Origin: an uncultured Clostridium sp.
GTDB taxonomy: Bacteria; Bacillota; Clostridia; Oscillospirales; CAG-272
Length of the DNA stretch: 64,000 nucleotides
NCBI GenBank assembly: GCA_964526505.1
Contig: CAZGJC010000001.1
Span: 16,105 to 80,104, forward strand
Direction: 5' to 3'
This document shows, in pieces, positions 5,960 through 54,690 of this stretch. The position numbers were made by a program, and so were the translations under genes. Under the pieces are notes generated by a model that saw only the letters and a program-made list of their open reading frames with translations, made no database searches and was not told where the DNA came from. Position 1 is the stretch's first letter, and each line of letters begins with the position of its first letter.

Positions 5960-6337
5960 TTATTCAGCGTCTGCTGTCTCAACAACGGTTTCTTCTGCAA
6001 CTTCGATGTTTTCTTCAACAACGGCACTCTTTGCAACAGGCTCGAAATCGAGTTTGATTGTCATAGAACGCATAATTGTTTCATCAATGTTGAACTGACG
6101 TTCAAGTTCTGCAATGAAAGAAGGAGCGGACTTGAACGTAACAACGGTGTAGTAGCCTTCGCTCATATCGTTGATAAGGTATGCAAGACGGCGTTTGCCC
6201 CATGTGTCTACCTCAACGATTTCTCCGTTGGAACCAATCAAACCTGCGAACTTATCAGCAGTTGCTTTTGCAGCCTCCTCGCCGTTTGAAAGATCAACGA
6301 CAAAAAGAGTTTCATAAGAATTGATTACGTTTTCCAT
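5960..6337 (-). CDS. rpsF: 30S ribosomal protein S6
   Basis: YETLFVVD..W.GKRRLAY.I. Sits in rpsF-ssb-rpsR synteny. GGAGG RBS present. Confidence 0.92.
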   Translation of the reverse strand: MENVINSYETLFVVDLSNGEEAAKATADKFAGLIGSNGEIVEVDTWGKRRLAYLINDMSEGYYTVVTFKSAPSFIAELERQFNIDETIMRSMTIKLDFEPVAKSAVVEENIEVAEETVVETADAE

Positions 6338-6424
6338 GTTTTTTACCTCCCTATGGACTTATTTGACCGCACACATATTGTGCGGTAGAGAGTAGGTTCG
6401 CAAAACGAACCATACCAATGATAG

Positions 6425-6453
6425 ATTATATCACAAGTTTATTTTTTTGTCAA
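6425..6453 (-). promoter_or_regulatory. sigma-A-type promoter for rpsF-ssb-rpsR
   Basis: On the minus strand: TTGACA (6453-6448), 17 nt, TATAAT (6430-6425) with a TGa extended -10. Confidence 0.65.
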
Positions 6454-6490
6454 TGGATTTTTGAAAAATATCTAAAAAATTACGTAAATT

Positions 6491-7069
6491 TTATGCTATA
6501 CTTACCAAAAAAATGGATAGAATCATCGAAAAGAGCGGAATTGCGGTACCGATTACAAGTTCGCTTATTTTATGTCGTTTCATTTTGCAAGACGACCAAA
6601 AAACCGGGACGAGCAGTAAAAGTCCGAAAAGAGCAAAAGGCGTATATACGTACGACAGATAAAATACGGGACCTGCAACTCCGCAAGCATGCCCGCTTGA
6701 ACGGATTTTTGCGACCTTATTGAGCAGGAGCATAATTACTCCCGAGAGCAAGTACGTTACGAATATAATTTGAAATTTTTCGGGCATTCCGAGAACGAAC
6801 GCACAAATTGCACCGCCGATGTAGCCTATAACCGACATTATTATCGCAAGCGTGCGTTGACCCTCACGACCTTTATTCTTAAAATGCGGTATAATCGGTT
6901 GAATGGCGTAGGCAAGTGCCGGGAAAATCGTTATAAATAAAATTCCAACCGAGGTATTGAGCCATCCTCCGGTTATTTCGGGAGAGACTATTTGCAGTAT
7001 CAGGAACGTGGCAAGGGCAATTATCGGTGCAACTGTGAGTATGCGTATAAAATATTGAACTTTTTTCAT
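6491..7069 (-). CDS. integral membrane protein, possibly a PAP2-type phosphatase
   Basis: About six predicted TM helices. SSGHACGVAG and KRHKISE loosely resemble the PAP2 C2/C3 motifs (PSGH, SRxxxxxHxxxD). Start at MKKVQ (ATG 7069, GGAG RBS). Confidence 0.45.
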   Translation of the reverse strand: MKKVQYFIRILTVAPIIALATFLILQIVSPEITGGWLNTSVGILFITIFPALAYAIQPIIPHFKNKGREGQRTLAIIMSVIGYIGGAICAFVLGMPEKFQIIFVTYLLSGVIMLLLNKVAKIRSSGHACGVAGPVFYLSYVYTPFALFGLLLLVPVFWSSCKMKRHKISELVIGTAIPLFSMILSIFLVSIA

Positions 7070-7312
7070 TGAAACTCCTATATATTCGTATCCGACATCT
7101 TTAAATGCGGTATTCAAAACCACTTATGCAAATATTATACACCACGAAACGTAATTTTTCAAGTATATTTCTAAAAGTTAAAAAATTGTTTTCAATACAT
7201 ATATTTTTGGCTCGGAACATTGTTTTTAACACTTGAAATTCTTTTGCGTCTTTGATATAATAATATCGGAAGTGTCAGACACTCGAAAAATTAAAGGAGG
7301 CAGAGACGTTTT

Positions 7313-9287: not shown

Positions 9288-9338
9288 AACGACATCTGCA
9301 ATGATTTTTGAGATTATTGCAGATGTCGTTATTTTTTT
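9288..9338. terminator. bidirectional intrinsic terminator
   Basis: 15-bp stem aacgacatctgcaat (9288-9302) / attgcagatgtcgtt (9316-9330), then a T-run (9332-9338). Confidence 0.8.
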
Positions 9339-9344
9339 GTGTTG

Positions 9345-9908
9345 TCAATTATTTATATATTTCCTGCCGTCTGAAAATGCGTTTCCGACACGCTCTCCTA
9401 TCACGTTATATCCGTGAGTTGCGGAATCATATGCGATGGGTTTGAGTTTTGATATATCGATTTTTTCGTTTGTGAGTATGCTGTTCTCCGCACAAACATT
9501 AACTATCTCACCAACAAGGCGACAGGTTTCTTTATCATATGATTTAACTCGGCATTCAAGTGCCAGAGGGAGCTCGCAGATTATCGGTGCATTTACAAAC
9601 TGACTCTTTTGTGTATGAAAACCGCAAACGTCAAGTTTGTTTTCAACTTTATTTCCCGTTGCGATGCCCAAATAGTCACATTCCTTGACATAGTCTGCGG
9701 TTGCCACACTTACGGTAAATGCGTTTGTTGCAATGAGATTTTTTGTGGTTTTGTGATCATCACTGATGCATATTGAAATTTCATCCGACTCGCTTATTCC
9801 GCCCCAAGCGGCGTTCATTGCGTTTGGTGTGCCGTTTTTGTCATAAGTCGCTATGATGAGAACAGGCATTGGATAAAGAATGGCTTTTGAACCGAAATTT
9901 TTTCTCAT
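9345..9908 (-). CDS. flavin reductase-like (FMN-binding split-barrel / flavoredoxin family) protein
   Basis: ILYPMPVLIIATYDKNGTPNAMNAAWGG is typical of the Flavin_Reduct family. Confidence 0.72.
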   Translation of the reverse strand: MRKNFGSKAILYPMPVLIIATYDKNGTPNAMNAAWGGISESDEISICISDDHKTTKNLIATNAFTVSVATADYVKECDYLGIATGNKVENKLDVCGFHTQKSQFVNAPIICELPLALECRVKSYDKETCRLVGEIVNVCAENSILTNEKIDISKLKPIAYDSATHGYNVIGERVGNAFSDGRKYINN

Positions 9909-10021
9909 AGTTAAAATCCTTTCTGATGAAGTTTGTTTTTTCAGTATATCATAACTTGTAAAAAAGTCAAATTAAATTATATTTGGAGAGAGCCGAAAAT
10001 GCGTTTTTATTTTCAAAAAAC

Positions 10022-10050
10022 TTGACATGCGGAAGTTTGTGTGTTAAAAT
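10022..10050 (+). promoter_or_regulatory. sigma-A-type promoter driving the orphan structured RNA
   Basis: TTGACA (10022-10027), 17 nt, TAAAAT (10045-10050) with a TGt extended -10. Confidence 0.6.
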
Positions 10051-10056
10051 GTTTAT

Positions 10057-10212
10057 GCCAAACAATTACATTTGAAAATTACCCTTGGGGAAACCATACC
10101 TTGGTAAAAGGTGTTTCTCTCTTTTTCTGTATACTCTGAGGGTAAGTGGAATTGTTTGGCGACAATGAGAGATACATTTTTTCGGTGCGTCTCTCATCGA
10201 CGCACCTTTTTT
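10057..10212 (+). ncRNA. unclassified structured small RNA or orphan riboswitch-like element, about 155 nt
   Basis: An 11-bp closing helix gccaaacaatt (10057-10067) / aattgtttggc (10150-10160) begins at the predicted transcription start. Inner helix ttaccct (10079-10085) / agggtaa (10139-10145). Two small hairpins lie inside. A terminator follows at 10184-10212. There is no plausible ORF and no same-strand gene downstream. Confidence 0.45.
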
Positions 10213-10216
10213 ATTT
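10184..10216 (+). terminator. intrinsic terminator of the orphan RNA
   Basis: ggtgcgtc (10184-10191) / gacgcacc (10199-10206), 7-nt loop, then tttttt. The upstream atgagaga (10165-10172) can alternatively pair with tctctcat (10190-10197). Confidence 0.75.
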
Positions 10217-10310
10217 TATCACTTCCCGTATCTTGTCCGAAAATAAAGTTCAAGACGAGGGAAGACAGGGAAGTGTCGGATGAACAGTCTAACACAAATT
10301 TATAAATTCC

Positions 10311-10343
10311 ATATAAAAATATCCTCTCCGATAAGGAGAGGAT
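10311..10343 (-). terminator. intrinsic terminator of the DtxR/MntR-family gene
   Basis: atcctctcc (10321-10329) / ggagaggat (10335-10343). On the minus strand it is followed by atttttatat. Confidence 0.7.
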
Positions 10344-10346
10344 ATT

Positions 10347-10709
10347 TCACTTTTTTATATGCTTTTTTATGGCTTCAAAACTTTCAGTACTTAGAACGTG
10401 TTCGAGTTTACACGCATCATCGGAGGCAATATTACTCGGAACGCCCATATCTTCCAACCACTTTGCAATTATTGTGTGTCGTTCCATAATATCTTCTGCA
10501 ATCTTTCGCCCGGATTCAAGCAGAATAATATGACCGTTTGCGTCTGTTTCGATATATCCGTTTTCACGCAAATTTTTCATGGCGACGCTGACGCTCGGCT
10601 TGGAAAAATCAAGTTCGTTGGCAATGTCTATTGCACGAACGTATCCTTTTCTGAGTTGCAGGCGGAGGATTGTTTCAAGATAGTTTTCCGCTGATTCCTG
10701 TATTTTCAT
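10347..10709 (-). CDS. DtxR/MntR-family metal-dependent transcriptional regulator (short, 120 aa)
   Basis: ESAENYLETILRL..GYVRAIDIANELDFSKPSVSVAMKNLRENGYI (winged HTH) followed by a dimerisation helix. GGAGG RBS present. Confidence 0.85.
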   Translation of the reverse strand: MKIQESAENYLETILRLQLRKGYVRAIDIANELDFSKPSVSVAMKNLRENGYIETDANGHIILLESGRKIAEDIMERHTIIAKWLEDMGVPSNIASDDACKLEHVLSTESFEAIKKHIKK

Positions 10710-10775
10710 TTTCCGCCTCCTTTTTGGCTATTATTGTTATTATATCACATTTCACAGTTTAATACAAGTGCCATT

Positions 10776-11483
10776 TTATACAAAAAACATAGTGCCGATA
10801 TCGTACAAAGGGCTATTTGAAAGAGAAACAACCTCTTTTTTATGCAAATGACAAAAATCAATTATACGTTTTGCGTTGGGATGTTCTGAAACGTTACCGC
10901 AAAAATATACTTTGTCTTTATACGTACCGGTAGCACCGCCTATAAAACCGCAGTCATATCCGTTCAATGACACACCGCCCGCTGATATCATCAACACATC
11001 AATATTGTTTTCCGTACAGGCTTTATATATTGAGTTATCCGACGTTATTATTGCGTCTTCGGCAATTTTACAAACCGAACATTTTGTGTATCCCTGGTTG
11101 GTATGAATTATATTAAAGTTGTTGAGGCGTGCTTCTTTGAGTATGAGTTCTGAAACGGTATTTTTATTACATAAAAGATTATTCCCGAGTGTTACGCAGT
11201 TAAACAGAACGTCGGCGGGGTATGTAGATTGTGTGTGTTCATCGGACAGAACAAGTTTATATGATGATAAAGCAAGTATTTTCTCTATATCACCTTTATT
11301 TTCCTCATAATATTTTTTGTGACAGAAAAGTTTACCGAAACCCACAAATATAATCATATCCGGGTGAGATGACACAGGCGGTGCAAGATATTTTGCACTA
11401 TGCAACGGCAAAATTTCAAATCCTGAGTTTTTAAGCGAGGACAGGGCATCGCTTGGTGTTCTGATATCTGTTATTACCGTCAT
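10776..11483 (-). CDS. conserved hypothetical protein (235 aa, cytoplasmic)
   Basis: Good RBS (AAGGAG) and no TM segments. SSHPDM, GYTKCS and CGFIGGATG are faintly reminiscent of guanidino-group-modifying / amidinotransferase-fold enzymes. The family is not recognised with confidence. Confidence 0.5.
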   Translation of the reverse strand: MTVITDIRTPSDALSSLKNSGFEILPLHSAKYLAPPVSSHPDMIIFVGFGKLFCHKKYYEENKGDIEKILALSSYKLVLSDEHTQSTYPADVLFNCVTLGNNLLCNKNTVSELILKEARLNNFNIIHTNQGYTKCSVCKIAEDAIITSDNSIYKACTENNIDVLMISAGGVSLNGYDCGFIGGATGTYKDKVYFCGNVSEHPNAKRIIDFCHLHKKEVVSLSNSPLYDIGTMFFV

Positions 11484-11507
11484 AAAAACTCCTTTTCTGA
11501 TAAAGTT

Positions 11508-11533
11508 AAAGGGCGTTTATAAAAACGCCCTTT
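11508..11533 (-). terminator. hairpin downstream of rpmB (probable terminator)
   Basis: aaagggcgttt (11508-11518) / aaacgcccttt (11523-11533). The U-tract on the minus strand is weak. Confidence 0.5.
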
Positions 11534-11565
11534 AAACTGTAAATATGGAAAGTCCATACATTTAA

Positions 11566-11751
11566 TTATGCACGGTTAATTTTGCCCGAACGAAGACAAC
11601 GGGAGCATACCGCAACGGTCTTGGGTGTACCGTCAACCATAGCCTTTACCTTGCGGATATTGGGCTTCCAAGTTCTATTTGTTTTTCTGTTAGAGTGTGA
11701 AACGTTCTGACCGAAAACAACGCCTTTTCCACAAACACTGCACTTTGCCAT
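11566..11751 (-). CDS. rpmB: 50S ribosomal protein L28
   Basis: MAKCSVCGKGVVFGQNVSHSNRKTNRTWKPNI. GGAGG lies 8 nt upstream of the ATG at 11751. Confidence 0.93.
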   Translation of the reverse strand: MAKCSVCGKGVVFGQNVSHSNRKTNRTWKPNIRKVKAMVDGTPKTVAVCSRCLRSGKINRA

Positions 11752-54613: not shown

Positions 54614-54690
54614 TGGTGGAGACAGCAGAACTCGAATCTGCGACCCCTTGCATGTCAAGCAAGTACTCTAACCAACTGAGCTATGCCTCC
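54614..54690 (-). tRNA. tRNA-Val (anticodon GAC), CCA encoded
   Basis: The minus strand reads GGAGGCATAGCTCAGTTGGTTAGAGTACTTGCTTGACATGCAAGGGGTCGCAGATTCGAGTTCTGCTGTCTCCACCA. It folds by hand into a cloverleaf: a 7-bp acceptor, a GCTC/GAGT D stem, anticodon stem CTTGC/GCAAG with loop TTGACAT, and T stem GCAGA/TCTGC with a TTCGAGT loop. Confidence 0.93.

Follow-up and report, generated by a model that had tools for sequence, protein, structure and literature searches.

A probable uncatalogued family of transcription-attenuation leader RNAs in gut Clostridia, with a strain-specific orphan copy

In Firmicutes transcriptional riboswitches such as c-di-GMP-I/II, the order starts with a promoter-proximal sensor whose stems covary and whose loops or junctions contain invariant nucleotides; an antiterminator/terminator pair follows, and then the ribosome binding site (RBS) of the controlled gene. 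Second-messenger riboswitches typically have heterogeneous targets that encode secreted or surface proteins, and in Clostridia the genes behind c-di-GMP riboswitches are of this mixed kind and belong to no single pathway. A terminator/antiterminator switch in the 5' leader is also found in the PyrR, TRAP, LicT/SacY RAT and ANTAR leaders. Terminated riboswitch leaders can act in trans, as SreA/SreB do in Listeria; these RNAs, and EutX/Rli55 of Enterococcus and Listeria, have known aptamers (SAM-I and AdoCbl) and demonstrated targets. The RNA described here has the order of parts seen in the transcriptional riboswitches and, in its homologues, a similar variety of downstream genes. It lies in a stretch of 64,000 nucleotides from an uncultured Clostridium sp., here called the window, which probably carries one copy of a family of riboswitch-like cis-regulators in gut Clostridia, so far uncatalogued, that act as promoter-proximal transcription-attenuation leaders.

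The leader RNA and its homologues

The RNA is preceded by a sigma-70-type promoter at 10022-10050 on the plus strand, with the -35 hexamer TTGACA at 10022-10027, a 17 nt spacer, and an extended -10 element (TGtTAAAAT) for which a consensus scan puts TG at 10042-10043 and TAAAAT at 10045-10050. It matches 11 of the 12 consensus positions and is the top promoter-like site within 9300-11600, bearing out the near-consensus promoter of an earlier note made from the sequence. Transcription presumably starts at about 10056-10058, and the terminated RNA would be ~155 nt long. The minimum free energy (MFE) of 10050-10220 is -55.9 kcal/mol, compared with -33.2 +/- 3.6 kcal/mol for dinucleotide shuffles (z = -6.3), and none of the 200 shuffles folds as well. 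BLASTN, nhmmer and two covariance models (CMs), one of them run with filters off, found no further copy of the RNA in the 64-kb window. A small-protein gene on either strand was considered and rejected; the ORFs in question (43 aa on the minus strand, 64 aa on the plus strand) have frames that are not conserved among members of the family, they are without promoters, and they are accounted for by the RNA.

Comparison with Rfam 15 (4227 families) did not place the RNA in any known family. When the whole window was searched by cmscan at gathering thresholds, no family was found at the RNA, and the sole match in the 64 kb was a tRNA gene at 54617-54690 (minus strand, 67.3 bits). In a sensitive cmscan of 9900-10360 the scores were 14-23.5 bits, where the gathering thresholds are 44-100, and the top score, 23.5 bits for a family with a threshold of 100, came from an alignment to the terminator alone. 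No threshold was reached by yybP-ykoY (Mn2+), czcD (NiCo), M-box (Mg2+) or c-di-GMP-I/II, nor by ydaO, 6S, SRP or T-box. The weak matches to manA-II, ncS025, TarB and L10_leader were rejected as family assignments, since they cover only a generic terminator-like hairpin and U-run. The earlier note had likewise recognised no riboswitch class, and neither search mode contradicts it. In the literature, neither the sequence strings nor the gene context led to anything relevant to the RNA. The family appears to be sequence-distinct and previously uncatalogued.

The search for homologues used a degenerate pattern (~48 bits) that covered the P2-P4 core of the RNA, with purine/pyrimidine codes in the stems and N in the loops. 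A scan of GTDB genomes, one per GTDB species, gave five loci, in a Lachnospiraceae MAG (L021), a Clostridia MAG from roe-deer colon (L022), a Candidatus Scatosoma (L023), a Eubacteriales MAG (L024) and an Oscillospiraceae MAG (L025), where the taxon labels are those deposited. A sixth and more diverged member (L043, 114 bits) was reached by way of proteins. The open forward frame of the RNA translates into a conserved pseudo-peptide, MFLSFS...KLCDNNE..., and a protein database search with this spurious translation led to a spurious 80-aa "protein", P0236, on contig L043. An exhaustive phmmer search added a few further spurious ORFs, among them the still more diverged P0243 on 11 ENA contigs, which probably marks a more diverged member of the RNA family. 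Together with the window copy, the six homologues put the family at no fewer than seven members. The "hypothetical proteins" P0236-P0245, of 32-84 aa (e.g. L043 3001-3243), correspond to translated leader RNA and promoter region; judged from their sequences they are annotation artefacts, and public protein collections hold them as spurious ORFs derived from a leader RNA.

All six homologues align with the window from the -35 hexamer through the terminator. CM scores range from 114 to 198 bits across members, with the window copy at 173-177 bits. The -35 and extended -10 elements are kept in all seven, with variation in the spacer between them. The promoter spacer, the 5' end (first 6 nt) and the junction J1/2 have diverged while the core is near-invariant, and this combination of diverged segments with conserved core and hexamers argues against a recent transfer and for selection acting on the RNA. 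Searches of other collections gave no further members: blastn against phage and plasmid collections found no match to the RNA, pattern scans of IMG/VR returned nothing real (L012 is a chance match within a coding region), and an exact 23-mer had 0 matches in the JGI metagenomes. The single JGI match to a relaxed 19-base pattern (L026) was dropped as a chance match within coding sequence.

In each of the six homologues an RBS and an ATG follow on the same strand 0-45 nt past the U-run, a gap that leaves no space for a separate promoter of the downstream ORF. The earlier note had stated that there is no same-strand gene downstream; this holds for the window copy, whose terminator is followed by no credible same-strand ORF, but not for the family. 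The RNA has a 5'-leader location, as is generally expected of a riboswitch, in the homologues and not in the window. The downstream ORFs encode a 295-aa secreted Cu_amine_oxidN1 protein (L021), a 122-aa Cys-rich lipoprotein (L022), a lipoprotein whose sequence is cut at the locus end (L023), a DUF4429-SHOCT protein (L024) and a 657-aa secreted protein with collagen-like repeats (L043). For L025 a 12-codon ORF comes first, followed by the gene of a polytopic membrane protein (247 aa). This short ORF (MKAINKTFASCF, L025 318-356) lies between the terminator and the membrane-protein gene, has its own RBS, and may be a leader peptide or spurious. The downstream genes each look monocistronic, and they have no common function that would indicate a ligand. 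The DUF4429-SHOCT homologues in other genomes (L027-L042) are without the RNA, which shows that it is not bound to one gene family. Among these homologues, those in L027-L036 adjoin a second SHOCT protein, and those in L037-L042 (e.g. L037 1-3462) lie amid phage integrase, HTH regulators, DUF6809 and DDE transposase, in contexts that appear prophage- or mobile-element-like. Beside the RNA itself, L023 has a 348-aa ORF on the minus strand (6196-7242) whose N-terminal FIAYHGS... is TIR-like by eye, and L043 has an HTH_3 regulator and a Y-family (IMS) polymerase at 1062-2850. Such neighbours hint at variable genomic islands as the setting of the leader-gene units.

Sensor domain and terminator/antiterminator alternative

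The sensor domain (10057-10160, plus strand) is a long irregular hairpin according to folds, RNAalifold and pair counts in the CM alignment. It is closed by P1, a perfect 11-bp helix of GCCAAACAATT (10057-10067) with AATTGTTTGGC (10150-10160), located exactly where the earlier note had drawn a closing helix. The inner helix of that note (10079-10085 with 10139-10145) is also present, with 8 bp instead of the proposed 7 bp, and is here called P2 (10079-10086 with 10138-10145). Two small hairpins had been described inside it. One is clear at 10096-10114, and forms P4 (10096-10102 with 10108-10114); the other is better described as alternative pairings of a GGGG tract. This tract (10087-10090) has two partners, either CUCU at 10134-10137, which extends P2, or the P3 strand, in which case GGGGAAAC (10087-10094) pairs with GUUUCUCU (10113-10120). 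Six of the seven members favour the P2 extension, and the GUUUCUCU pairing is the MFE state of the window copy. The exact fold of the sensor is ambiguous in this part, as low-complexity purine/pyrimidine tracts permit alternatives (P3 or the P2 extension, and AAAAG/CUUUU). A near-invariant core at 10087-10127 on the plus strand, read from the invariant alignment columns as GGGGAAAC-nAUAyCUUGryAAAAGrUG-UUyCUCUCUUUUUC, is retained even by L043, the most diverged of the members aligned. Its conservation suggests that it is likely to be the effector-binding or switching region.

The helices can be followed through the family. In the CM alignment of the seven members 96.3% of paired cells hold a pair, compared with 37-52% when the partners are slid, in an alignment that is CM-fitted and hence biased towards the model. 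Compensatory changes are seen at five sensor pairs, of which three are in P1 (C-G/U-A and A-U/C-G), one is in P2 (C-G to G-C in L043) and one is in P4 (C-G/U-A); the seven sequences fall into about three lineages, meaning that the independent compensatory events are few. P1, P2 and P4 are kept with such changes in the six homologues, the conservation that the earlier note had proposed to look for in relatives. A conserved, structured sensor with covarying helices and conserved unpaired nucleotides, as in riboswitches generally, is present.

Between the sensor and the terminator lies a linker (10161-10177, plus strand) with an invariant ACAAU at 10162-10166 and the 5' arm of an antiterminator, AUGAGAGAUACAU, at 10165-10177. 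The intrinsic terminator at 10184-10212 (plus strand, GGTGCGTC/GACGCACC) has a stem of 10184-10191 with 10199-10206 and a T6/U-run at 10207-10212, in agreement with the strong terminator reported in the earlier note. That note had also seen that the segment atgagaga could pair with tctctcat in the terminator 5' arm. The pairing exists and extends further, joining 10165-10177 with 10185-10197 at 12 of 13 positions and covering nearly all of the terminator 5' arm. The 5' arm and loop of the terminator (10185-10197) double as the 3' arm of the antiterminator, so that the two hairpins are mutually exclusive, again a general feature of riboswitches, and this is the case in all seven members. Their predicted stabilities are similar throughout (-13 to -17 kcal/mol for the terminator and -13 to -19 kcal/mol for the antiterminator in 7/7 members), and the MFE structure of L022 and of L023 is the antiterminator one. 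The terminator stem shows compensatory changes across members, and changes are coordinated in linker, terminator 5' arm and terminator 3' arm: the window has GAGAGAU/GUCUCUC, L024 has GAGAGCG/CGCUCUC and L043 has GAGGGAC/GUUCCUU, with the terminator 3' arm tracking each change. Coordinated substitutions in three strands are a signature of regulated termination. The aptamer-plus-expression-platform layout suggested in the earlier note is retained here, with sensor helices, a terminator/antiterminator pair and, in the homologues, a position upstream of an ORF.

How the sensor would act on this platform is less direct. P1 ends 3-4 nt upstream of the antiterminator and does not overlap it, so both may coexist, and in this the coupling of sensor to platform departs from the textbook type. 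A candidate for the coupling is the sensor strand UGUUUCUCUC (10112-10121), which is complementary to the antiterminator 5' arm at 10167-10176; for each of the seven members its duplex with the linker is computed at -8.3 to -12.4 kcal/mol. As the bases involved are invariant, this capture of the linker is beyond the reach of co-variation. A different connection, co-variation of the antiterminator 5' arm with the variable distal bulge, was seen in the window and L022, fails in L025, and was dropped.

The proposed mechanism is as follows. Transcription from the strong constitutive promoter would begin at P1 of the ~105-nt sensor hairpin. If the linker (ACAAUGAGAG...) then pairs with the terminator 5' arm, the antiterminator would form and the polymerase would read through into the next gene. 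Alternatively, the sensor strand UGUUUCUCUC may capture the linker, in which case the terminator would form and the ~155-nt RNA would be released. A putative effector (a small molecule, an ion or an RNA-binding protein) could bias the choice of partner by the sensor strand. In the working model, UGUUUCUCUC would be free when P2 is extended, and would capture the linker and lead to termination; with P3 formed or the effector bound it would be sequestered, leading to the antiterminator and read-through. In each homologue the switch would act on one ORF, whose product is a lipoprotein, a membrane protein, a protein that is secreted or adhesin-like, or the DUF4429-SHOCT protein.

It is possible to read the same features in another way, as a stand-alone trans-acting sRNA in which the pyrimidine-rich loop (UUUCUCUCUUUUUC) seeds purine-rich RBSs and the neighbouring genes are expressed by leaky read-through. 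The core is conserved in sequence beyond its structure, as in sRNA seeds. The window copy has no ORF and regulates nothing in cis, keeps its near-consensus promoter, its structure (still 173-177 bits) and its strong terminator, and fits a trans-acting RNA equally well. But in the other six members an RBS and an ORF follow the U-run too closely for a promoter, and a co-varying antiterminator that competes with the terminator would serve no purpose if the gene encoded a simple sRNA. One RNA could also play both roles. As the sole explanation of the family, an sRNA is unlikely, and a leader that controls the next gene is the reading preferred.

The strain-specific locus beside mntR

The window copy is part of a strain-specific cassette of 220 bp (9997-10216, plus strand), made up of an AT-rich upstream stretch, the promoter, the leader RNA and the terminator. 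The cassette is present in a same-strain contig (L013, 99.9% identical). In the same-species contigs L001-L003 the whole of 9997-10216 is replaced by 32 unrelated nt, with BLASTN break points at L001 2993 (window 10217) and L001 3026 (window 9996), while the flanks are 96.3-96.7% identical to the window and MntR is 99% identical. That the 32 nt might be a decayed cassette was rejected, as the local alignment score was 7 and the shuffle mean 7.5.

The neighbouring genes are all on the minus strand, and comprise a flavin-reductase-like gene (9345-9908), a DtxR/MntR-family gene (10347-10709), DUF6873 (10776-11483), rpmB and a MiaB-like gene. Contigs with MntR homologues (74-99% identity) retain the order miaB-like/rpmB/DUF6873/mntR, and the RNA is absent from all of these outside the same strain, that is from six relatives and one same-species strain. 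Synteny breaks just downstream of mntR (window 9909-10346; L005 2864-3414; L009 2867-3025; L015 1464-1585; L018 2870-2968), and the gene after mntR differs by lineage, being a flavin reductase, a 122-aa ORF, DUF5722, an acetyltransferase or others. On the minus strand, 9943-9970 has the form of a good promoter for the flavin-reductase gene (TTGACT, 16 nt, TATACT with TG). This site and the leader promoter are divergent, with only ~50 nt between the -35 boxes; the strain-specific cassette does not include it, and L001 has it too.

A cassette that comes and goes between strains could be a MITE-like miniature mobile element with the 11-bp P1 arms as its terminal inverted repeats, which would explain the strain-specific presence. 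The indel between strains and the perfect 11-bp inverted repeat agree with this, as does the location of members in accessory or variable regions (the Y-family polymerase and HTH of L043, and the TIR-like-by-eye ORF of L023). However, the indel ends at 9997 and 10216 lie ~60 nt beyond the inverted repeat and enclose the promoter and terminator, no target-site duplication is seen, the 64 kb contain just one copy, and phage, plasmid and viral collections gave no matches. The spacer has also diverged with the hexamers kept, which points to expression under selection for a long time and away from recent copying. None of the usual marks of a MITE (terminal inverted repeats at the ends, target-site duplication, multiple copies) is found, and such an element is very unlikely.

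The position of the cassette had led the earlier note to suggest a link with metal regulation, as read-through antisense to the metal regulator, and to ask whether related copies are always found beside DtxR-family genes. The mntR gene (10347-10709, minus strand) is indeed of the DtxR family, with the Pfam domains Fe_dep_repress and Fe_dep_repr_C, and a ligand-controlled (metal-controlled) antisense RNA whose read-through enters the 3' end of mntR and regulates it would fit the convergent orientation and the distance of ~135 nt from the leader terminator to the mntR stop codon. Between the two, however, is a second terminator that is not in the cassette. At 10317-10356 there is a 13-bp hairpin (AAATATCCTCTCC...GGAGAGGATATTT) flanked by T-runs on both strands; the plus-strand site at 10317-10347, with the tail CACTTTTTTA, would stop read-through no more than a few bases from the stop codon of mntR, and the region is also present in L001. 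This hairpin is predicted to be a bidirectional terminator, which ends mntR on the minus strand and on the plus strand would stop read-through from the leader at the edge of mntR, before the coding region. Furthermore, the cassette is missing in a strain with a 99% identical MntR and in every syntenic relative at greater distance, no DtxR-family or metal-homeostasis gene adjoins any of the six homologues, and the RNA does not resemble the metal riboswitch families of Rfam. The absence in a strain and in relatives, together with the second terminator, leaves the antisense and metal link without comparative or structural support. Control of mntR by this RNA is extremely unlikely, and the proximity of the leader to mntR is best taken as coincidence.

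Returning to the leader reading, the window copy is evidently an orphan, the gene to be controlled having apparently been lost or never present, and to all appearances it is intact. Its products would be the ~155-nt terminated RNA, or a read-through RNA of ~300 nt ending at the mntR terminator. It may have been orphaned recently and have no role, or it may be a leader-derived small RNA or effector sponge. In the first case it would be a non-functional recent remnant, left when the gene was deleted or when the leader alone was gained by recombination, with the RNA made and inert. The locus downstream of mntR does turn over, with a different gene in each of L005, L009, L015 and L018; the cassette is missing in a same-species strain; and some blemishes are seen only in the window copy, namely two mismatches, A-G where P1 would be extended and A-C within the antiterminator, and a P2 extension that is shorter than in the other members. 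On the other hand, promoter, helices and terminator are intact, the CM score is within the range of the gene-linked copies and no decay is visible. An inert remnant is possible for this copy but not probable. It concerns the local copy only, and is compatible with the leader explanation for the family.

Likeness to known leader RNAs

The closest likeness is to the transcriptional riboswitches of the Firmicutes. With its covarying sensor, its terminator/antiterminator alternative and its leader position in the homologues, the family has in silico what is generally expected of a riboswitch or attenuator, with a putative ligand. The differences are that no Rfam family matches, including those for c-di-NMP, ppGpp, ions and metals, that P1 and the antiterminator occupy separate segments, and that the window copy is without a gene. 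The likeness could be taken further, to a new class of riboswitch that senses a signalling molecule (an alarmone, for instance, or a cyclic dinucleotide or oligonucleotide) and gates accessory genes for surface, secreted and lipoproteins, where orphans would be ligand-responsive sRNAs or sponges; in this specific form the proposal is tentative and rather unlikely.

The other leaders with such a switch suggest a different kind of effector. By analogy with the PyrR, TRAP, LicT/SacY RAT and ANTAR systems, a protein could bind to the long pyrimidine tract, which is conserved and single-stranded, and on the features seen here a protein effector would be equally possible as a ligand. The family nevertheless matches neither the PyrR, RAT nor other leader models, its sensor is far larger than the RAT or ANTAR hairpins, and no gene for a cognate RNA-binding regulator is linked to it at any of the seven loci. 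One PyrR match of 17.9 bits, located on the mntR terminator, was set aside as chance.

If confirmed, the family would be a new and sequence-distinct attenuator or riboswitch candidate in largely uncultured gut Clostridia. The near-invariant core, together with targets that are lipoproteins, adhesin-like or secreted, suggests control of the cell surface by a putative signal. The covariance model and the pattern produced here are applicable to all genomes.

For the window copy the nearest parallels are SreA/SreB of Listeria and EutX/Rli55 of Enterococcus and Listeria, since it would likewise yield a terminated leader on its own. The present case differs in that the orphan state is strain-specific and that ligand and target are putative. 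A strain-variable orphan of this kind offers a natural case in which to ask whether leaders can persist, or act as the terminated leaders of Listeria do, when there is no gene to regulate.
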